From Anaerolineae bacterium (GTDB lineage: Bacteria > Chloroflexota > Anaerolineae > B4-G1): a DNA stretch of 64,000 nt. Positions 16,536 through 56,180 of the stretch are shown here, in pieces; within the stretch, counting starts at the first letter, position 1; every line of letters begins with the position of its first letter. A program made the translations under genes and the position numbers. The notes under the pieces are model-generated. The model worked only from the letters and a program-made list of their open reading frames with translations. It did not search any database and was not told the DNA's origin. Location: NCBI GenBank assembly GCA_046760785.1, contig JBHIET010000005.1, positions 1,165 to 65,164 of the forward strand. Direction: 5' to 3'.

Positions 16536-17486
16536 CTATTGTCTCGGAGGAACGATGGCGTCAATCTGAGCCAGCACGTCCTCATCTAGCTCTACGTCCA
16601 CCGCCTTCAGGTTGCTCTCGACGTGGGCCACCCTGGTTGCGCCGGTGATGACGCTGCTCACACCCGGCTGGCGCAGAATCCAGGCCAGGGCCAGTTGGGT
16701 GCGAGTGATGCCCAGCCCGGCGGCGATGGGCTTGAGACGGCGCACCAGCTCTCGCTTCTCTTCGGTGAACCAGGATTCGCGCAGCCAGTCCTCGCGGGCC
16801 AGGCGGCTGTTCTCCGGCAATCCATCGTCATACTTGCCGGTGAGCAGCCCCGATGCCAACGGACTGAAAGTGGTCAGCCCGATTCCATTTGGTTCGGTCA
16901 CAGGCAGAATCTCTCGTTCCACCCGGTCGCGGTACAGGATGCTGTACTGCGGCTGCTCGACCTGCGGCCAGTAGAGGTTGTACTGCCGCGCCAACCCGAC
17001 TGCCTCCGCAATCTGCGCGCCGCTCCACTCGCTGGTGCCCCAGTAGAGGATTTCACCCTGGTGCACCAGGTCGTCCATCGCCCGTACTACCTCCTCCAAC
17101 CCTGTCTCTGGGTCGTAACGATGGCAGTAGTAGAGATCGAGATAGTCGGTGCCGATGCGCTTGAGCGATTTATGCACCGAATCCATAATGTGCTTACGCG
17201 AAAGCCCCTGGTCGTTGACGTCGTCGCTCATCGGCCAAAAGACCTTGCTGGAGATGACCAGCGTATGACGCGGGAACTCGCGCAGCACTGCCCCCATCAT
17301 CCGTTCCGCCTCCCCGCCAGCGTAGACATCGGCGATATCGAAGAAGTTGACACCATTCTCGTAGGCGGTGACGATGATCTGACGGGCCAGGTCAGCATCT
17401 TTGACGCTATTGCCGAAACTGAGCCATCCTCCCAGGCCCAACACACTGACCTTTAGCCCGGCGTTGCCTAATCTACGGTATTTCAC
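16536..17486 (-). CDS. Aldo/keto reductase (Kv-beta-like)
   Basis: VKYRRLGNAGLKVSVLGLGGW. The GTG at 17486 is preceded by ggaggggg. The track ORF is extended to 17543. Confidence 0.8.
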   Translation of the reverse strand: MKYRRLGNAGLKVSVLGLGGWLSFGNSVKDADLARQIIVTAYENGVNFFDIADVYAGGEAERMMGAVLREFPRHTLVISSKVFWPMSDDVNDQGLSRKHIMDSVHKSLKRIGTDYLDLYYCHRYDPETGLEEVVRAMDDLVHQGEILYWGTSEWSGAQIAEAVGLARQYNLYWPQVEQPQYSILYRDRVEREILPVTEPNGIGLTTFSPLASGLLTGKYDDGLPENSRLAREDWLRESWFTEEKRELVRRLKPIAAGLGITRTQLALAWILRQPGVSSVITGATRVAHVESNLKAVDVELDEDVLAQIDAIVPPRQ

Positions 17487-17597
17487 AATTGCCCCCCTCC
17501 GTGTCAGATATCTATCCCCCACACAGTGCGTCACAGGATCCAACCAGGAAACTCAACGCCGCCACGCCCACACTCAGGGCTATGCAGATCAGGCCCC

Positions 17598-17879
17598 CTA
17601 CACAGCGCCGTCTTGTTCCAGCACCCCAACCACAGAAAATCCTTCCAGCACATCTGCGCCGTGGGGGGCTTGATCCAGACTGGCGGTCAAATCCACTCCA
17701 GCTATGTGCAAAACCTGATGCCGACCATTCTGCCACAAGAAGCTGTGAGATACGTCATATACCCTGCCCTTATAGGCTATGAAGGCAGATGCCCCGTCCT
17801 TACCATTGCATTGAGCAAGTTCCTTTATTGTAAACCTTCGCATCTCCAAAACCCCGCCGATGCCCTGTATTGGAGGCAT
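17598..17879 (-). CDS. Cytochrome b5-like haem/steroid-binding domain protein
   Basis: FTIKELAQCNGKDGASAFIAYKGRVYDVSHSFLWQNGRHQ..HIAGVDLT. An alternative start lies at 17843. Confidence 0.65.
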   Translation of the reverse strand: MPPIQGIGGVLEMRRFTIKELAQCNGKDGASAFIAYKGRVYDVSHSFLWQNGRHQVLHIAGVDLTASLDQAPHGADVLEGFSVVGVLEQDGAV

Positions 17880-17924
17880 CGGGGAGGCCCTGGACGCAGA
17901 GCCTCCCCTTTGCCGAATCCGATC

Positions 17925-18476
17925 CTACTCCAGGAACTTGCGAACAAAGGGAGAAGTCTCCCCTCGACGCAGGAAGTGACCAGAGGGACCCTCACCCAAG
18001 AACTCGGAGAACCACGATTCGTGCTCCACCTCTTCATTGAGGATCGCCAGAGACAAATCATAGGTCCGATGATCCTTGCCGGCGGTCATGTTGCAGATCT
18101 GGGTGTATCCACGCACGGCGCACCGTTCGGCCTCCACCAACACCGTCAGCATCGCCTCAATGTCAGTGGGGTCCTCGGGGAGACCAGCCGGCGGGCAGGC
18201 CGACACGTCATGGAACTCCTTCATGTCGTCTGGAAGTTTGCCCCCTAGTTCGTAGATGCGAGGGACCAGGGCTTCAAAGTGATTGCGATCCTCAATGCGG
18301 GCTGTCTCAGCGATCTCTTTGATGCCCTCCCCCTTCAGTCCGATCAGGTTCACCCTTAGAATTGTGTAATAGTAATAAGTGGTGAGCTCGGCGGCTGCAT
18401 TCTTAACCAATAGTTCCAACAACTGGTCAACGTCCACTCCCGCCCTTTCTACCACTTCTCGTGCTACTTTAGCCAT
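17925..18476 (-). CDS. DPS-like (DPSL / 'thioferritin') ferritin-superfamily protein, paralogue 1
   Basis: There is a ferritin-like di-iron helix pattern (IEDRNHFEAL, NEEVEHESW) and the conserved Cys pair (SACPP...AERCAV). Confidence 0.7.
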   Translation of the reverse strand: MAKVAREVVERAGVDVDQLLELLVKNAAAELTTYYYYTILRVNLIGLKGEGIKEIAETARIEDRNHFEALVPRIYELGGKLPDDMKEFHDVSACPPAGLPEDPTDIEAMLTVLVEAERCAVRGYTQICNMTAGKDHRTYDLSLAILNEEVEHESWFSEFLGEGPSGHFLRRGETSPFVRKFLE

Positions 18477-18507
18477 TATCCTTTTTCCTTTCTTGCTCGT
18501 CGTAAAA

Positions 18508-18900
18508 TCAACCTACGCTAATCTCCCTGCTGCTTTCCCATAGCCCATGGATGTTGCAATAGGCCAGGGCGTGCAGCGTGCCAGATTTGTTGAGCTTCAA
18601 CGATGTGGCTACTGCGTGATGCGTGTAAGCCGGGCCCTGGTTCGGCCCTGCGGCCGATTCACCGTGGGCATTGAACTCGAAGTGGCCCACGTCGTAGGTG
18701 AACTTGTCACCCTCCGGGTGGAAGTAGAGGGAGATCCAGCGGATGTGGTGTTCGGTGGTGTTGGGGTGAGCGATCTCCTTCCCCAAGCCGACCTTCACCT
18801 CAAATACCTCGCCCGCCTTCACCCGGTCCGGACACTCGATGACCGGCACGTGCTTCTCTTTCTTCCAATCCGCCTCTTGAATTCTGCCTCCAAGTTTCAT
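18508..18900 (-). CDS. sor: Superoxide reductase (1Fe-SOR, neelaredoxin type)
   Basis: EKHVPVIE, HPNTTEHHI and YCNIHGLWE are the SOR ligand motifs. The ATG overlaps the upstream stop codon (ATGA). Confidence 0.85.
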   Translation of the reverse strand: MKLGGRIQEADWKKEKHVPVIECPDRVKAGEVFEVKVGLGKEIAHPNTTEHHIRWISLYFHPEGDKFTYDVGHFEFNAHGESAAGPNQGPAYTHHAVATSLKLNKSGTLHALAYCNIHGLWESSREISVG

Positions 18901-19400
18901 GGTTGTCCCCTTTCCTTCATCAACTGAATGTCCTCAACAATAGCCTGCAGGTCCTCCTCGTGTTCGATCTCGTCTGCGAGGATCGAGAGGACGAGCTCAT
19001 ACGTCACCGGGTCAGTATCTTTGGTGGAGTCCACCAACTTCTGGTAGACCTCGATGGCGCATTGCTCGCCCTTGATGTTCTGTTCCAACAACACCTCCAC
19101 GTAAGGGTCTTCAGGAGGTTCGTACCCGCAGTTGGTCATCTTGTACCAGTCTTCGGGTGCGAGGAGCGGCGTACCGCCAAGCTGGATGAGCCTGTTCGAG
19201 AGCAACTCCGCGTGTCCCAGCTCTTCAGTGGCATGCTGCAAGAGCTCGGCAGCAACGGTCCCCCTCATAGGCCCCTTGGCCACCTTGGCGCCTACCCAGT
19301 ACTGGTAGTACGCCAGCCATTCGTCCGCGAGAGCCTTGTTGAGTATTTCGACGAGTTTGTCCACATCCATACCTACGATCGCTCTTCCTTTCGTACCCAT
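18897..19400 (-). CDS. DPS-like (DPSL) ferritin-superfamily protein, paralogue 2
   Basis: LNKALADEWLAYYQYW, ATEELGHAELL and ADEIEHEEDL, with the Cys pair (TNCGY...GEQCAI). Confidence 0.7.
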   Translation of the reverse strand: MGTKGRAIVGMDVDKLVEILNKALADEWLAYYQYWVGAKVAKGPMRGTVAAELLQHATEELGHAELLSNRLIQLGGTPLLAPEDWYKMTNCGYEPPEDPYVEVLLEQNIKGEQCAIEVYQKLVDSTKDTDPVTYELVLSILADEIEHEEDLQAIVEDIQLMKERGQP

Positions 19401-19438
19401 TTTGATTTGCCCTCCTTATACTGATTGTTGGATTTGTT

Positions 19439-19957
19439 TCACTTCAGCGCCGCGATGATCGTCCGGCAGAAAGCGGGCAGGTCGCTCGGCACACGCGAGG
19501 TGATCAGATTGCCATCCTGCACCACTTCTTCGTCAACGTAGGTAGCACCAGCGTTGCTCACGTCATCCCTGATCGCTGGGACGCAGGTGGCCCGCTTGCC
19601 TTTCATGACGCCCGCCGAGACCGCCACCCACGCGGCATGACAGATGGTCGCCACAATACCGCCACGCTCGAACACGCCCCTCACCAGGTCGAGCATCGCT
19701 TGGTGGCGGCGCATCCGATCGGGTGCGTAGCCACCTGGCACGATGACCGCGTCGAAGTCATCCGCCGAGACTGCATCGGCAGCGACGTCCACTTCCACCG
19801 GATAGCCGTGTTTGCTGTGGTACTCCTTCACGCCCGGCATTCCGACGACGCTCACTTCGGCGCCGGCCTCCCGCATGCGCAGCAGTGGGTACCACAGCTC
19901 CAACTCCTGATACATATCCTCGGCCAGAATAGCGATACGTTTCCCTTTCAACTCCAT
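19439..19957 (-). CDS. DJ-1/PfpI family protein
   Basis: The nucleophile elbow ATICHAAW is present together with VIVPGGYAP. Confidence 0.8.
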   Translation of the reverse strand: MELKGKRIAILAEDMYQELELWYPLLRMREAGAEVSVVGMPGVKEYHSKHGYPVEVDVAADAVSADDFDAVIVPGGYAPDRMRRHQAMLDLVRGVFERGGIVATICHAAWVAVSAGVMKGKRATCVPAIRDDVSNAGATYVDEEVVQDGNLITSRVPSDLPAFCRTIIAALK

Positions 19958-20008
19958 ACCAGCCTCCTTTCTGTTTCTTGCTTCCTGCTTCTTGCCTCCC
20001 GCCTCTTT

Positions 20009-20539
20009 TCACGTCACCCGGCGAAACTTCTCCCGCCCGGCGCTGCAAATCGGGCATTGGTCGGGTGGTTCGCCTTCCACCGTCCACCCGCACACCTCGC
20101 AGATATAGACGTCGCCTACCTCCACGTCTTGGCCCGCGAGCACGGATTGCCGAGCCGCCTCATACATACCCGTGTGGACCTTCTCCGCCTCCAGCGCCCA
20201 GGTGTTGGAACGAATGGCCGCCTTCTCCTCCTGCAATTCGGCCACCGCCAGGAAAGCGGGATACATCTCCTCGACCTCGTAGGTCTCGCCGCCGATGGCG
20301 ACCTCCAGGTTTGGTGCTGTCTTGCCCAGATTCCCCAACGCCTTGAAGTGGTTGGTGGCGTGCACCTGTTCGGCGTAGGCGATGGCCCGGAAGAGCCGCG
20401 CTACGTTGGGGAACCCCTCCTGCTCTGCCTTATCGGCGAAGATCAGATAGCGCATGTGCGCCTGGCTTTCGCCCGCGAAAGCCGCTTCCAGATTGGATTG
20501 GGTCATCTTATGCATTTGGTGTATCTCCTCCTTCATCAT
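20009..20539 (-). CDS. rbr: Rubrerythrin
   Basis: N-terminal di-iron domain (AFAGESQAHMRYL) and a C-terminal rubredoxin-like CEVCG...CPIC. Confidence 0.85.
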   Translation of the reverse strand: MMKEEIHQMHKMTQSNLEAAFAGESQAHMRYLIFADKAEQEGFPNVARLFRAIAYAEQVHATNHFKALGNLGKTAPNLEVAIGGETYEVEEMYPAFLAVAELQEEKAAIRSNTWALEAEKVHTGMYEAARQSVLAGQDVEVGDVYICEVCGWTVEGEPPDQCPICSAGREKFRRVT

Positions 20540-20573
20540 GGTTTTGGGTTCAGCCTATTTCGGGCTTGACGTT

Positions 20574-21818
20574 TCACGCTTCGCGTAACAATGCTTCCAG
20601 GTCAAAGTCATCATCCATTAGCCGAGCGGCATGAACCGAGACGCCCACGCCCCGCTCGATCAATAGGGTGACAGGGCGCACCCGCTCTCTGTCGTTGAGC
20701 AGGATCGCGCCCACGATGCGTCCCTCGTGCAGCACGAACTTGCGGTAGTGTCCGGTTGCCAGGTCCACGTGCCGTAACGATGTGTAGCTGTCCTCCTCTG
20801 TCAGGCATTCCCCCAGCGAGGTTAACTCCGCCCCGGCGACTTTGAGCGTGGTGGCGGGGAGCGTGCCGGTGTAAGTGGCACTGCCGGGCGCGACCATGTT
20901 CGCCGCGGCGACCGTAGCCTGCTCGATGGCGGGCGGGATGATCCCATAGACCCGCCCTTCGAATTCGGCGGCGTCACCCGCGGCGAAGACGTCCTCCGCG
21001 CTCGTCTGCAACTGGTCATCAACGACGATGCCACGGTTCACTTCGAGCCCCGCTGTCTGGGCCAGTTCGACTTCACTGCGGATGCCGGTTGAGAAAAGTA
21101 CCAGCTCTCCGGCCACCACGCGCCCATCCCTTCGACTATGCTCAGGGCGAGCCTTAAGCCGGATGGCCTCAGCACGCCCGTTGCCCAGGATGGCCTCCGT
21201 CGCTGCGCTGGTGATGATTTGCAACCCTTGCGCCTCCAGCAGCGATTGCAGAACCTCAGCACCTTCGGCGTCCATCTGGCGCGGCAACAGGTGGGGGGCG
21301 AACTCGACCACGGTCACGTCCAGACCGGCGGCATGGAGCGCCCGCGCCGTCTCCAGCCCCAACAGCCCCCCGCCGATGACCACCGCCGTAGAGACCTCCT
21401 GAGCGTGCTGTTTGATCGCCAGAGCATCATCCAGGGTACGCAACGAAAAAACGCCCTCCTTGTCCGCTCCCTCGCAAGGGGGCACAAAAGGGCGTGCGCC
21501 TGTGGCGAGCAGAAGGCAGTCGTATTCCACCTGGGAGCCGTCGGCCAAGGCGAGGCGGTGGGCTGTGGGATCGAGCGAGATGGCCCGGACGCCCAGGTGC
21601 AGGTGGATGCCACGCTCAGCATACCAGGCTGGCGGTCGAAAGTAGAGCGCGTCTTGTTCGATCTGGCCAGCGATGAACTCCCACAGGAGGGGGCGGCGGT
21701 AGTAGGGATAAGGCTCGACGCCGAAGACGTGCACCTCGGCGCTCGGGTCGGCCCGGACGATTGCTTGAGCTGCTGTCACACCAGCGACGCCGCTGCCCAC
21801 GATAACGTGTCGCCTCAT
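20574..21818 (-). CDS. FAD/NAD(P)H-dependent oxidoreductase (NADH:rubredoxin oxidoreductase-like)
   Basis: Dinucleotide folds VIVGSGVAGVTAA and VVIGGGLLGLETA. Genomic context with rubredoxin and the flavodiiron protein supports the call. Confidence 0.75.
   Translation of the reverse strand: MRRHVIVGSGVAGVTAAQAIVRADPSAEVHVFGVEPYPYYRRPLLWEFIAGQIEQDALYFRPPAWYAERGIHLHLGVRAISLDPTAHRLALADGSQVEYDCLLLATGARPFVPPCEGADKEGVFSLRTLDDALAIKQHAQEVSTAVVIGGGLLGLETARALHAAGLDVTVVEFAPHLLPRQMDAEGAEVLQSLLEAQGLQIITSAATEAILGNGRAEAIRLKARPEHSRRDGRVVAGELVLFSTGIRSEVELAQTAGLEVNRGIVVDDQLQTSAEDVFAAGDAAEFEGRVYGIIPPAIEQATVAAANMVAPGSATYTGTLPATTLKVAGAELTSLGECLTEEDSYTSLRHVDLATGHYRKFVLHEGRIVGAILLNDRERVRPVTLLIERGVGVSVHAARLMDDDFDLEALLREA
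21129..21147. repeat. Palindromic element copy in frame inside the NROR-like gene
   Basis: ccttcgactatgctcaggg (reverse orientation) encodes ..ARPEHSRRD... Confidence 0.5.
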
Positions 21819-21844
21819 TGGTTACCTTTCGCCACTACGCCTTC

Positions 21845-23032
21845 TCAGCGCTGCAAGTTCAGCGCGTTGTGTTTCTCCGCGATGGTAGCCGCCAGTTTAT
21901 CCAGGGCCGCGAAATCCTCGCCCCTGGGGTGGCCCTTGACGACGACCGGATCCAGTATCTCCACCTTCAGGTTGGGAATTAACCCTGCCAGTTGCTTTAT
22001 CATCTTGCCGCCCCAACCGTATGAGCCGATGATCGAGACGAACCTCACCTTGGGCTGCAAGGCATTAGCCAGGTAGGCCGCGTAGATGACGTTCGGATGT
22101 GCACCAGTCAGGACAGTGGGCGATCCGATCACGATGGTGGCAGCATCCACCAGCGCCATGGCCAGTTCCCCGATATCGGTGACGGCCAGGTTGAACTGTT
22201 GCACAATCACCCCTTTTTCGATCAGGGCATCCACCAGGTGGTTTACCATCACGCGGGTGGTGCCGTGCATCGAGATGTAGGGGAGGACGACGACGTTCTT
22301 CGGGTCGCCAAGAACCCAATCGCGATACGCCTCCAGGATGAACTCGGGGCGGTCGTACATCGGGCCGTGGCTGGGGGCGATGAGGGAGACGTTGTACCGC
22401 TGCACTTTCTCCAGGTTCTTCTCGATGATCTTGCGGAACGGCATCATGATTTCCGCATAGTACCGCTTGGCCGCCTCATAAACCTGCCCTTCATCGGTGA
22501 CGTACAGGTCGGCGGTGGCCAGGTGTGAGCCGAAGAAATCGCAAGGGAAGATGATCTTGTCCTCCCGCAGATAGGTCAGCATCGTCTCGGGCCAGTGAAC
22601 CCACGGCGCGTGGATGAACTCGAGAGTTCTGTCACCTAATGGTAGCGTTGCGCCATCGTCCACTGTGAGAAAGCGGCCTTCCGGTGCCAGCAGCAAGTCT
22701 ACAAGCATCCCTTTACATTTGGGCGTGGAGACGACCTGCGCCTTGGGGTATCGCTCCAGAATCTGTGGAAGCGTGCCCGAATGGTCCTGCTCGGCGTGAT
22801 TGGCGATGACATAATCAATATGCTCAGGGCTCAGTTGATCCAGACGACCGAGCAAGACGTGTGACATAGTGGGGTCAACAGTGTCTATCAGCGCCGTTTT
22901 CTCGCTTCCCTGGATCAAGTAAGCGTTATAACTGGTGCCATCGGGGAGCGGGATGAGATCGTCAAACAGCCGGCGATCCCAGTCAACGGCTCCCACCCAG
23001 TAGATACCATCCTTTATCTTTCTTGGTTGCAT
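21845..23032 (-). CDS. fprA: Flavodiiron protein (FprA-type O2/NO reductase)
   Basis: MQPRKIKDGIYWVGAVDWDRRLFD, the di-iron motif HAEQDHSG, and a C-terminal flavodoxin domain. The track ORF extension to 23242 is an artefact that overlaps rubredoxin. Confidence 0.85.
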   Translation of the reverse strand: MQPRKIKDGIYWVGAVDWDRRLFDDLIPLPDGTSYNAYLIQGSEKTALIDTVDPTMSHVLLGRLDQLSPEHIDYVIANHAEQDHSGTLPQILERYPKAQVVSTPKCKGMLVDLLLAPEGRFLTVDDGATLPLGDRTLEFIHAPWVHWPETMLTYLREDKIIFPCDFFGSHLATADLYVTDEGQVYEAAKRYYAEIMMPFRKIIEKNLEKVQRYNVSLIAPSHGPMYDRPEFILEAYRDWVLGDPKNVVVLPYISMHGTTRVMVNHLVDALIEKGVIVQQFNLAVTDIGELAMALVDAATIVIGSPTVLTGAHPNVIYAAYLANALQPKVRFVSIIGSYGWGGKMIKQLAGLIPNLKVEILDPVVVKGHPRGEDFAALDKLAATIAEKHNALNLQR

Positions 23033-23036
23033 CACT

Positions 23037-23198
23037 TCACTCCACTTTCTCGAACATGTCTTTGCCCGCGCCGCAATCGGGACACACCCAATCGTCGGGC
23101 AGCGCCTCGAAGGGCGTGCCGGGCTCGACCCCGTTATCGGGGTCGCCCACCTCCGGGTCGTAGACGTAGCCACACACCATACATTCCCACTTGTCCAT
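23037..23198 (-). CDS. rub: Rubredoxin (53 aa, absent from the ORF track)
   Basis: Hand translation gives [53 protein letters not shown]. This is a canonical CxxCG...CPxCG rubredoxin. An RBS (aggaggg) lies upstream. Confidence 0.9.
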
Positions 23199-23331
23199 AG
23201 CAGTTCCCTCCTGTTTATATATTGTGAAGCCTCCGGTCGCACCAGCCTGAAGAGCTGATGCTGGATGGCTTTCCGACGATTCTATGATCTCCGGCGCCGC
23301 CTGTTCGCGGCGGCACGGGTTGGGCCTAGCT

Positions 23332-23766
23332 TCAGCCCTCCTGGGGAGCGCAGGCGGGACAGTAGCCGCGAAAAACCACGCTGCAATCCACCACTTGAAA
23401 CCCGTGCGCGTGCTCGGGCGAGAGTGTCAGTGCCTCGTGATCACAGAGCACATCCTCCACACACCCGCACCTCAGGCAGACCAGGTGAGCGTGGTCCGTC
23501 GTGTTAACGTCGTAGCGTCGCTCCCCCAGCCCCAGGTCCAGTTCCAACAGCACACCCATCTCAACCAGCTCGTGCAGCGTGTTGTAGACCGTGGCGTGCG
23601 ACATGTCGAGCATCGAGCCTTGCACGCGCGTGAAAATCTGCTCGGCGGTGAGGTGAGTGCCCTCATCCTCCAGCAAAACCTGGATGATGGCCCGCCTCTG
23701 GGGCGTTACCCGGCGGCCTCGCTCTTTCAGTTGTGCGCAGAGGTGGTCTACGGTAGACATAGTCAC
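23332..23766 (-). CDS. Fur family transcriptional regulator (PerR-like by context)
   Basis: [28 protein letters not shown] and a C-terminal CPAC. Confidence 0.8.
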
Positions 23767-23779
23767 ACTTACGGCGAAA

Positions 23780-24298
23780 TCACTCCTGTGCTTCCTGACC
23801 CGCCTGGGGGGCTGGCCGCCTACCCAACTCTCTATCCAACATCAGAAGGGCCTGGCGATTGTCCCCCAACATCCTCAATGTCTCTACAATCTGGCTTGCG
23901 TTGTCCTCCTCCTCGACCTGCTCCGTCACGAACCACTGCAAAAATATCTGGCTGGCGTAATCTTTCTCCTGAACTGCAAGCGCGTAGAGGTCGTCAATCA
24001 TCGCCGTCACCTTTTGCTCATGTTCGAGCGTCTTTTCGAAAACGTCGAGAGGCGACTGGAACTCGGCAGGCGGCTGATCAACGGCCTGGAGAACCACGCG
24101 ACCACCTCGGTTGTGGATGAACCCGTAGAACCTCATCGCGTGCCCCAACTCCTCCTGAGCCTGCATGCGCATCCAACGTGCGAAGCCCGCGAAGTTGATG
24201 GATTCACAATAGGCCGACATCGAAAGATAGAGGTAAGCGGAATACAGCTCATTCTTGATCTGTTCGTTCATTGCGTCTTGGATTATCTGGTTCAACAT
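23780..24298 (-). CDS. Ferritin (non-haem, Ftn type)
   Basis: MLNQIIQDAMNEQIKNELYSAYLYLSMSAY...QEELGHAMRF. An RBS (aaggagg) lies 8 nt before the ATG at 24298. Confidence 0.85.
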   Translation of the reverse strand: MLNQIIQDAMNEQIKNELYSAYLYLSMSAYCESINFAGFARWMRMQAQEELGHAMRFYGFIHNRGGRVVLQAVDQPPAEFQSPLDVFEKTLEHEQKVTAMIDDLYALAVQEKDYASQIFLQWFVTEQVEEEDNASQIVETLRMLGDNRQALLMLDRELGRRPAPQAGQEAQE

Positions 24299-24340
24299 TA
24301 TCAATTCCTCCTTCAAGACTTATTTATAGCGTCTCCTAAT

Positions 24341-24355
24341 TTATAACCATTATAA
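24341..24355. promoter_or_regulatory. PerR/Fur-type 7-1-7 inverted repeat TTATAAC-C-ATTATAA
   Basis: 14 of 15 positions match the TTATAATnATTATAA box as I remember it. It overlaps the -10 of the ferritin promoter. Confidence 0.55.
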
Positions 24356-24376
24356 CATACTTGTGCTCATTGTCAA
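24349..24376 (-). promoter_or_regulatory. Sigma70 promoter for ferritin: TTGACA-16-TATAAT with extended -10 TG
   Basis: The minus strand reads tatTTGACAatgagcacaagtatgtTATAATgg. Confidence 0.6.
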
Positions 24377-24401
24377 ATACTTGGCATTCTGTTCTGCCAC
24401 C

Positions 24402-24443
24402 AGCATAGCAGAAAGTGGGTCGTCTGTCTACGACAAAAGTCAC
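24402..24443 (-). promoter_or_regulatory. Conserved ~42-bp promoter-like module, copy A (TAGACA-17-TATGCT)
   Basis: The minus strand gtgacttttgtcgtagacagacgacccactttctgctatgct is about 85% identical to 25773-25814. Confidence 0.45.
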
Positions 24444-24494
24444 ATCGTGTTGGCTGTACCTTGGCCTGCAGTTGCTCACAGCCAGAGGTGCACC

Positions 24495-24522
24495 TTGACA
24501 CCACCGCGCTTTCGACTACAAT
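24495..24522 (+). promoter_or_regulatory. Sigma70 promoter TTGACA-16-TACAAT for the Crp/Fnr gene (transcript predicted to be leaderless)
   Basis: The -10 ends 9 nt before the ATG at 24532, and no RBS lies between them. Confidence 0.5.
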
Positions 24523-24531
24523 GGCGCTGTC

Positions 24532-25197
24532 ATGGAAACCACTGTCCAGGCCCTGCACCGCGTCTCCCTCTTCGCCGGCCTCTCCGACGACGCGCTGACC
24601 CGCGTCGCCGGTGCGGCCATGCGCCGCACCTATGCTCCGGGCCAGATGGTCATCTTCGAGGGCGACCCCTGTCAGGCGGCTTACTTCATCGCTGAGGGGC
24701 AGGTGCGTGTCTATCGCCTCTCCCCTGCTGGCCGCGAGCAGGTACTGGTGCGGCTGGGGCCGGGCCAGACTTTCAACACGGTGCCCCCCTTTCAACCCCA
24801 CGGCGTCAATCACGCCACCGTCGGGGCCCTCACTGAGGTCACCCTTTACGCCATCGCCAGCGACGACTTCCGCCGCCTGGTGGGCGAGTGTGCCGAGCTG
24901 GCGCTGGCCATTCTGCAGGACTTCGCCGCCCGGCTCGACCATCTGACCAACCTGGTGGAGGACCTTTCACTGCGCACGGTGCGAGGGCGGCTGGCCCATT
25001 TTTTGCTGGAGTACGCCGATGCGGATACGGTGACCCGGCGCTGGACGCAGGAGGAGATCGCCGCCCACCTGGGAACGGTGCGGGACATGGTGGGGCGCAC
25101 GCTGCGGGCCTTCACCGACGCGGGGCTGGTGCGGGTGGAGCGGCAGCGCATCGTGTTGCTCGACCGGGAGGGGCTGGAGGCCGAGGCGCAGTGCTGA
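24532..25197 (+). CDS. Crp/Fnr family transcriptional regulator
   Basis: A cNMP-binding-like N-terminal domain and a C-terminal HTH (EEIAAHLGTVRDMVGRTLRAF). Confidence 0.8.
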   Translation: METTVQALHRVSLFAGLSDDALTRVAGAAMRRTYAPGQMVIFEGDPCQAAYFIAEGQVRVYRLSPAGREQVLVRLGPGQTFNTVPPFQPHGVNHATVGALTEVTLYAIASDDFRRLVGECAELALAILQDFAARLDHLTNLVEDLSLRTVRGRLAHFLLEYADADTVTRRWTQEEIAAHLGTVRDMVGRTLRAFTDAGLVRVERQRIVLLDREGLEAEAQC

Positions 25198-25724: not shown

Positions 25725-25772
25725 CGACTGGCCTGATTTAGCTGCTAGCGGAGTGCGAAATCTAGGCTAAGT

Positions 25773-25814
25773 GCGACTTTTGTCGTAGACAGGTGACCGC
25801 CTTTCTGCTACACT
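25773..25814 (+). promoter_or_regulatory. Conserved ~42-bp promoter-like module, copy B (TAGACA-17-TACACT)
   Basis: gcgacttttgtcgtagacaggtgaccgcctttctgctacact lies immediately upstream of the second ferredoxin gene. Confidence 0.45.
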
Positions 25815-25838
25815 GTGGTGGAAAGGCGGTCACTTTAT

Positions 25839-56151: not shown

Positions 56152-56180
56152 TTGACACGGTGCGTCTCTCATCCTATAAT
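56152..56180 (+). promoter_or_regulatory. Perfect consensus sigma70 promoter TTGACA-17-TATAAT
   Basis: tTTGACAcggtgcgtctctcatccTATAATgg lies upstream of the DUF433 gene. Confidence 0.6.

Follow-up and report, generated by a model that had tools for sequence, protein, structure and literature searches.

For Clostridium acetobutylicum, experiments have defined a PerR regulon that comprises rbr3A-rbr3B, dfx, rd, nror and fprA1/2 (PMC5050335). In Clostridioides difficile, a PerR site is found at the promoter of the rbr-perR-sor-CD0828 operon (PMC11980386), in which perR is embedded behind the first structural gene, as it is in the locus described here. Additionally, perR-rbr-roo operons in Geobacter and perR-rbr-rdl operons in Desulfovibrio vulgaris were predicted by comparative genomics (Rodionov et al. 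2004, PMC545781). Autoregulated operons combining PerR with rubrerythrin, superoxide reductase (SOR) and flavodiiron protein (FDP) are thus known from Clostridia and predicted in Deltaproteobacteria, so that the present locus follows a known design and is conceptually nothing new. With the C. difficile and C. acetobutylicum systems, it shares rubrerythrin, SOR, rubredoxin, NADH:rubredoxin oxidoreductase (NROR) and flavodiiron proteins (PMC11980386, PMC5050335). Our literature search found no account of PerR regulation in Anaerolineales or Anaerolineae.

The locus was analysed within a stretch of 64,000 nt, hereafter the window, from an uncultured anaerobic Chloroflexota bacterium with 61% G+C. 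It was found in DNA runs of hydrothermal-vent metagenomes only, and the nearest relatives of the window are Anaerolineales/Chloroflexota MAGs. The original prediction described a string of oxygen-defence genes (17598-24342) that lie on a single strand with short gaps. Pfam and NCBIfam matches confirmed this gene list, and no gap exceeds 133 nt. From first to last, the genes are:

23780 to 24298, minus strand: non-haem ferritin, the first gene of the string (PF00210, 2e-46; NCBIfam non-haem ferritin)
23332 to 23766, minus strand: PerR-type Fur-family regulator, the second gene (PF01475)
23037 to 23198, minus strand: rubredoxin, rd (PF00301, 9e-26)
21845 to 23032, minus strand: FDP (ODP and metallo-beta-lactamase Pfam domains; full-length flavorubredoxin-type NCBIfam match)
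20574 to 21818, minus strand: NROR-like flavoprotein (Pyr_redox_2 and Rubredoxin_C)
20009 to 20539, minus strand: rubrerythrin (PF02915 and PF21349)
19439 to 19957, minus strand: DJ-1/PfpI family protein (PF01965, 1e-51)
18897 to 19400, minus strand: DPS-like ferritin-fold protein 1, DPSL1 (PF00210; weak archaeal DPS NCBIfam match)
18508 to 18900, minus strand: 1Fe SOR of the neelaredoxin type (PF01880 and TIGR00332), with a 4-nt overlap with DPSL1
17925 to 18476, minus strand: DPS-like protein 2, DPSL2, of the archaeal DPS type (NF009990, 328 bits, above the cut-off)
17598 to 17879, minus strand: cytochrome b5-like protein, the last gene claimed (PF00173)

From ferritin to cytochrome b5, the gaps measure 13-19, 133, 4, 26, 34, 51, 38, -4, 31 and 45-81 nt. 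The Fur-family membership claimed for the second gene held (PF01475), whereas the claimed spacing of 13 nt downstream of ferritin probably does not: alignment of the orthologues points to ATG 23760 (MSTVDH...) rather than GTG 23766 as the perR start, which lies 19 nt after ferritin. The cytochrome b5-like protein probably starts at ATG 17843 (MRRFTIKEL...), with the relatives aligning from residue 10. In addition, an aldo/keto reductase gene follows about 114 nt past cytochrome b5 on the same strand, and fold analysis revealed no terminator-like fold between these two genes.

At the head of the string, a consensus promoter scan identified P1 on the minus strand as a 12/12 sigma-70-type promoter with an extended -10 and a 16-nt spacer, in full agreement with the TTGACA-16-TATAAT promoter and extended -10 TG that had been predicted about 50 nt before the ferritin start. 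A near-consensus 7-1-7 PerR box had also been proposed to overlap the -10, and such a box is indeed present, with all but one specified position matching. The elements of this region are as follows:

24371 to 24376, minus strand: P1 -35 hexamer, TTGACA; CTTGACA is kept in 11/11 distinct relatives (mean pairwise identity 0.87)
24349 to 24357, minus strand: P1 extended -10, TGtTATAAT, with the TG at 24357-24356 and TATAAT at 24354-24349; TATG-TTATAAT is kept in the relatives
24341 to 24355, no strand assigned: PerR box 1, a 7-1-7 inverted repeat with one mismatch to TTATAATNATTATAA, unique in the window
24342, minus strand: predicted P1 transcription start, an A located 7 nt after the -10, placed by promoter geometry only
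24299 to 24341, minus strand: 5' untranslated leader of ferritin with the Shine-Dalgarno sequence GAAGGAGG, as read from the sequence
24324 to 24338, minus strand: conserved leader element or weak second 7-1-7, TAGGAGA-C-GCTATAA; the clade consensus is TAAGAAA-N-RTTATAA, then ATAAG

Box 1 reads TTATAACCATTATAA on the plus strand and TTATAATGGTTATAA (TTATAAT-G-GTTATAA) on the gene strand, and it contains 13 of the 14 specified bases of the Bacillus PerR box TTATAATNATTATAA, T2 and A14 included. It was the sole site with at most three mismatches to TTATAATNATTATAA in the 64-kb window, where 0.12 would be expected, and none of 100 shuffles contained any match with at most one mismatch. Promoters scoring 12/12 occurred twice in the window and never in block shuffles, and seven sites scored at least 11/12 against 0.12 expected; because both classes exceed the shuffles, the host, with its 61% G+C, uses near-consensus sigma-70 promoters. 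Relative to the predicted start, box 1 extends from about -13 to +2, so that, for the perR-containing string, both the -10 and the predicted +1 fall within it.

The ferritin ATG at 24298 is located 50 nt past the P1 -10 and is preceded by GAAGGAGG. No stable fold was found in the ferritin leader by fold analysis, and an Rfam scan of 17400-24600 returned no match. All relatives share the leader element at 24324-24338, 17 nt downstream of box 1; its right half is well conserved, and its left half is conserved yet not palindromic. Possible roles of this element are those of an additional, weak PerR site, a half-site repeat or a feature acting at the RNA level.

The 142-aa regulator encoded by the second gene matched PF01475 at 1.4e-26 over residues 16-131, in line with a Fur-family fold. 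Its best PDB match was B. subtilis PerR (2FE3), with which Fur (9IRE) tied at about 9e-21. The equivalog models gave scores below their cut-offs for both NF052545 PerR (98 bits vs 180) and Fur Bacillus (96.8 vs 220); these models are clade-specific, so the failed cut-offs limit only a claim of orthology to those proteins. As HMM scores thus fail to distinguish PerR from Fur, the PerR class was assigned on diagnostic residues. All five regulatory ligands of PerR listed in PMC11724291 and PMC10294975 (H37, D85, H91, H93 and D104 in B. subtilis PerR numbering; H38, D86, H92, H94 and D105 in the window protein) are present in the window protein and in 12 relatives. The Cys4 structural zinc site (C96, C99, C136 and C139) is likewise found in all of these proteins. 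Moreover, Asn61 occurs in the window protein and in 12/12 relatives, whereas Fur 9IRE has Arg61, and position 104 is Asp in the window protein and its relatives, whereas it is Glu in Fur 9IRE. The recognition-helix residue Asn61 (Arg in Fur) reportedly directs the protein to the PerR box in preference to the Fur box, and Asp or Glu at position 104 is said to set peroxide sensitivity, with Asp in PerR and Glu in Fur.

Relatives of the locus were found by protein-guided scans of genome and metagenome contigs, plus one pattern match (L243). The footprint set comprised 11 distinct orthologous heads from Anaerolineales-type Chloroflexota, whose PerR proteins are 65-79% identical to the window protein, 79% being the best match among the scanned contigs. 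The same layout was shared by all 11 heads: CTTGACA, a variable spacer, TATG-TTATAAT, G and RTTATAA. Mean pairwise identity across these 11 promoters was 0.87 for the -35, 0.87 for TATG, 0.95 for half-site 1 and 0.72 for half-site 2, and it dropped to 0.36 in the spacer and 0.29 in the upstream DNA; these two low values indicate that the sequences have diverged to near-random where they are unconstrained. Half-site 2 is retained between the -10 and +1, a stretch in which promoters need no specific sequence. The boxes of the relatives are 0-4 positions off the PerR consensus, and a perfect consensus box, TTATAATGATTATAA (14/14 specified bases), is carried by L088 and L243. This footprint of 11 relatives, together with the PerR-diagnostic residues, backs the original prediction of a PerR-type operator on a consensus promoter that heads the string of its own regulator.

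Irrespective of whether the gene string opens with ferritin or with perR, the cassette always lies at its head. Ferritin opens the string in the window, L002/L086, L084, L087, L090 and L243, and perR does so in L001, L003, L085, L088 and L089. Specifically, the order is ferritin-perR in the window, L087, L090 and L243, ferritin-DPSL2-cytochrome b5-perR in L002 and L086, and ferritin-cytochrome b5-perR in L084.

Some relatives also differ in their downstream genes. The perR-rd junction of L003 (6430-7545) is rearranged and contains, in order, a small Rieske-like ORF (CPH...CPCH), an extra rubredoxin, a small ORF, a duplicated perR 3' fragment and a second rubredoxin. In Saccharolobus, PerR is known to target a Rieske NirD-like gene (PMC11724291). 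The NROR homologue of L001 (8412-8893), like those of L081 and L082, can be aligned over residues 1-60 and 297-397 only, which points to the loss of an internal segment or to a frameshift in the gene of this lineage.

Among more distant homologue loci, mostly from Clostridia, 57 of 75 had a PerR-type box at most 150 nt upstream, defined as TTATAATNATTATAA or TTAGAATNATTCTAA with at most two mismatches and with the distance counted from the alignment start. In the clostridial homologue loci, TTAGAATNATTCTAA boxes are located just upstream of perR. The box density upstream of the distant homologues was 6.2 per kb vs 0.033 per kb elsewhere, an enrichment of about 190-fold. Other palindromes or a classic Fur box were seen in the more distant homologues L004, L005, L006 and L092, which are uninformative for the clade; a perfect palindrome, CAATTGCGAACGATTCGCAATTG, lies at about 300-345 in L092 and a classic Fur box, GATAATGAGAATCATTATC, at about 100-125 in L006, each just upstream of a distant Fur-family homologue.

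Matches to the exact motif TGTTATAATGNTTATAA were also collected from genome contigs, and those listed came mostly from low-G+C genomes without a link to oxygen defence. Oxygen-defence genes were found nearby in just 2 of 120 sampled loci among the matches listed, and one of these two was the new relative L243. Low-G+C genomes thus often carry TGTTATAATGNTTATAA in unrelated settings, so that a match by itself lacks specificity, and the case for a PerR operator rests on context and conservation.

Box 1 might alternatively be bound by an iron-sensing Fur paralogue encoded elsewhere, in which case the string would respond to iron and not to peroxide. The position of ferritin as the first gene would suit such a regulator, only two symmetric positions distinguish PerR boxes from Fur boxes, and the PerR and Fur HMM scores are nearly equal. 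At these positions, however, the boxes have T2 in 11/11 and A14 in 9/11 cases, and T2/A14 is reportedly the PerR-type pattern, with G/C being typical of Fur boxes. The co-encoded regulator also has Asn61 and Asp104 and not Arg and Glu, and the box accompanies perR even where the ferritin gene is missing (L001, L003, L088 and L089). Control by a Fur paralogue is very unlikely in our view.

A further alternative, which we consider extremely improbable, is that no operator exists and that the palindrome merely reflects a strong promoter whose TATAAT -10 precedes A+T-rich sequence that melts readily around the start. Half-site 1 coincides with the -10, the leader is A+T-rich throughout (0.67-0.87), and the exact motif is widespread in the unrelated settings mentioned above, all of which would fit such an origin. 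However, half-site 2 keeps the specific sequence RTTATAA, beyond mere A+T richness, in 11 diverged promoters. The second 12/12 promoter of the window, TTGACA-17-TATAAT at 56152-56180 on the plus strand, served as a negative control; it is followed by GGTCCCT, with no A+T-rich or PerR-like second half-site. Moreover, a PerR-type regulator accompanies the box in all cases, and boxes of this type are enriched just upstream of the homologues to the extent given above.

P1, a strong sigma-70-type promoter, very probably contains the site to which the PerR encoded in its own string binds. Conservation of the promoter and the box, together with the PerR residues, gives good support for inferring an autoregulated PerR-repressed promoter, and we consider it likely that P1 is such a promoter, released by peroxide through its PerR operator and heading the oxygen-defence string. 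PerR binding, the peroxide response, the start site near 24342 and the transcript length are what we infer from the sequence. A metal-loaded PerR dimer (Fe2+ or Mn2+) would probably occupy box 1 (-13 to +2) and exclude RNA polymerase. H2O2 or O2-derived peroxide would oxidise the iron-liganding His38 and His92 (H37 and H91 in B. subtilis PerR), upon which PerR would leave the DNA and ferritin, perR, rubredoxin, FDP, NROR, rubrerythrin, PfpI, DPSL1, SOR, DPSL2 and cytochrome b5 would be transcribed. As perR is part of the unit, fresh PerR would then reinstate repression, a case of negative autoregulation.

The original prediction also stated that the string contains no convincing internal promoter or terminator. 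No sigma-70-like promoter scoring at least 9/12 was found on the gene strand in 17598-24340, and no canonical terminators were found inside the string. The statement thus stands for canonical signals, but it needs to be qualified for two strong hairpins without U-tracts. The structured regions are:

23199 to 23331, minus strand: structured perR-rd gap with hairpins at 23314-23295 and 23260-23240 and no U-tract (-53 kcal/mol, z = -2.87)
17881 to 17908, minus strand: 12-bp G+C hairpin after DPSL2, GGGGAGGCTCTG/CAGGGCCTCCCC, with no U-tract (z = -3.1)

The perR-rd gap (133 nt) is the largest in the string and folds far better than shuffles, with the stems GCCGCCG...CGGCGGC and CATCAGC...GCTGGTG. 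We also considered whether the gap hairpins were copies of a dispersed repeat; this was rejected, as no other copy exists in the window.

It is possible, though rather doubtful, that transcription of the string is segmented, with P1 mainly serving ferritin and perR and with the hairpins after perR and DPSL2 terminating transcription, attenuating it or marking processing sites. The genes rd-fdp-nror-rbr-...-sor and cytochrome b5 would then differ in expression level or depend on weak promoters of their own. The strong folding of both regions would agree with this, and an unrelated, different perfect 15-bp hairpin occurs at the same post-perR position in L002, L003 and L086. Additionally, a full promoter module lies between perR and rd in the L001 lineage, and a GGGGCWTCATAWTAT element is conserved before the rd ribosome-binding site in most relatives. 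Against segmentation, all of the hairpins lack a U-tract, the perR-rd gap has no promoter-like site of at least 9/12, and the gap, which measures 42 nt upward in the relatives, is only 42 nt long in L083 and L084 and has no hairpin there. Likewise, the 3' end of perR, rd and the 5' end of NROR lie together on one contig of a relative (about 84% identical) from a marine-sediment metatranscriptome; this contig could originate from contaminating DNA, and it is weak support for co-transcription in that relative.

The RNA runs searched for the locus contained fragments that were 80-90% alike, from other organisms only, with 5-6% of words shared. One RNA-run contig includes the -35 region and is indistinguishable from DNA carry-over. 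Because the hairpins are strong in the window and varied or missing in the relatives, attenuation or processing is possible. A single 6.7-kb transcript from P1, covering 17598-24342, is plausible but unproven.

In addition to P1, the string head carries a second conserved promoter module, P2. This module, the neighbouring regulator gene and further modules of the same type are:

24395 to 24444, minus strand: P2 module, with the palindrome TGTGAC-TTTT-GTCGTA centred at -41.5 and TAGACA-17-TGcTATGCT, conserved in relatives
24532 to 25197, plus strand: divergent CRP/FNR-family regulator (cNMP_binding and HTH_Crp_2), syntenic in relatives
25768 to 25815, plus strand: further P2-type module of the window
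L001 6454 to 6510 and L002 4077 to 4140: P2-type modules of relatives
L084 1805 (minus strand) and 2645 (plus strand), L088 3044 (minus strand) and L089 2910 (minus strand): P2-type modules of relatives

The predicted start of P2 is at 24395, 53 nt upstream of that of P1, and the P2 geometry is that of a class II CRP/FNR-dependent promoter. The module consensus is RTGYGAYTTTTRTCGYAGACAG...CTTTCTGCTAYRCTG, with the palindrome TGYGAC-N4-GTCGYA at -41.5 of TAGACA-17-TGcTAYRCT. P2-type modules are located upstream of P1 in the window, L002, L084 and L086, between perR and rd in L001, L081 and L082, and ahead of the ferredoxin gene that neighbours the CRP/FNR gene in the window (25783), L084, L088 and L089. 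Together, they form a candidate regulon of the divergent CRP/FNR-family regulator, the putative binder of the P2 palindrome. The FNR-type N-terminal Cys cluster is absent from this regulator.

The string head might even be a portable two-input control cassette composed of P2 and the PerR-held P1, a speculative proposal that we regard as unlikely. In such a cassette, the divergent CRP/FNR-family regulator would probably drive P2, which would fire into the PerR-occupied P1 operator and the conserved second site at +4 to +18. Because P2 is upstream of P1, its transcripts would have to cross the PerR operator, and PerR would serve as a roadblock in addition to occluding the promoter. Expression would then need a redox or gas signal plus oxidised PerR. 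The P2 module would have moved within the clade among the positions before P1, between perR and rd, and before the ferredoxin gene.

Compared with B. subtilis PerR, the locus has the same 7-1-7 operator, regulatory ligands, Cys4 site and Asn61 (PMC545781, PMC11724291, PMC10294975). As in B. subtilis, the operator lies over the promoter, and the regulator would repress its own gene. However, the window regulator is only a distant homologue (phmmer E = 9e-21), and its host is an anaerobic Chloroflexota bacterium with 61% G+C. The predicted targets differ as well: rubrerythrin, SOR, FDP, rubredoxin/NROR and DPSL are of the anaerobe type, whereas B. subtilis PerR controls catalase, AhpCF, MrgA and haem genes. 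Moreover, the B. subtilis PerR regulon is dispersed, whereas all predicted targets here lie in one string.

The clostridial systems belong to another phylum, and their box is of the TTAGAAT type, whereas that of the present locus is of the Bacillus TTATAAT type. With 11 genes, the string is also far longer than theirs, adding ferritin, two DPS-like proteins, PfpI and cytochrome b5, and it has the extra upstream promoter module of the CRP/FNR type. The operons of Geobacter and Desulfovibrio are likewise predicted to have a palindromic PerR operator over the -10 of an autoregulated operon with perR, rubrerythrin and FDP. Their operators have diverged from the Bacillus consensus, whereas the Bacillus-type operator described here is nearly perfect, and unlike in those operons, perR is not always the first gene. 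The pair of a Bacillus-type PerR and its PerR box is thereby extended, nearly unchanged, to the anaerobic Anaerolineales, which are abundant in sediments and vents. Comprising an operator of 15 bp, one defined repressor and 11 target genes in a compact set, the locus offers a testable handle on the switching of oxygen defence in strict anaerobes.
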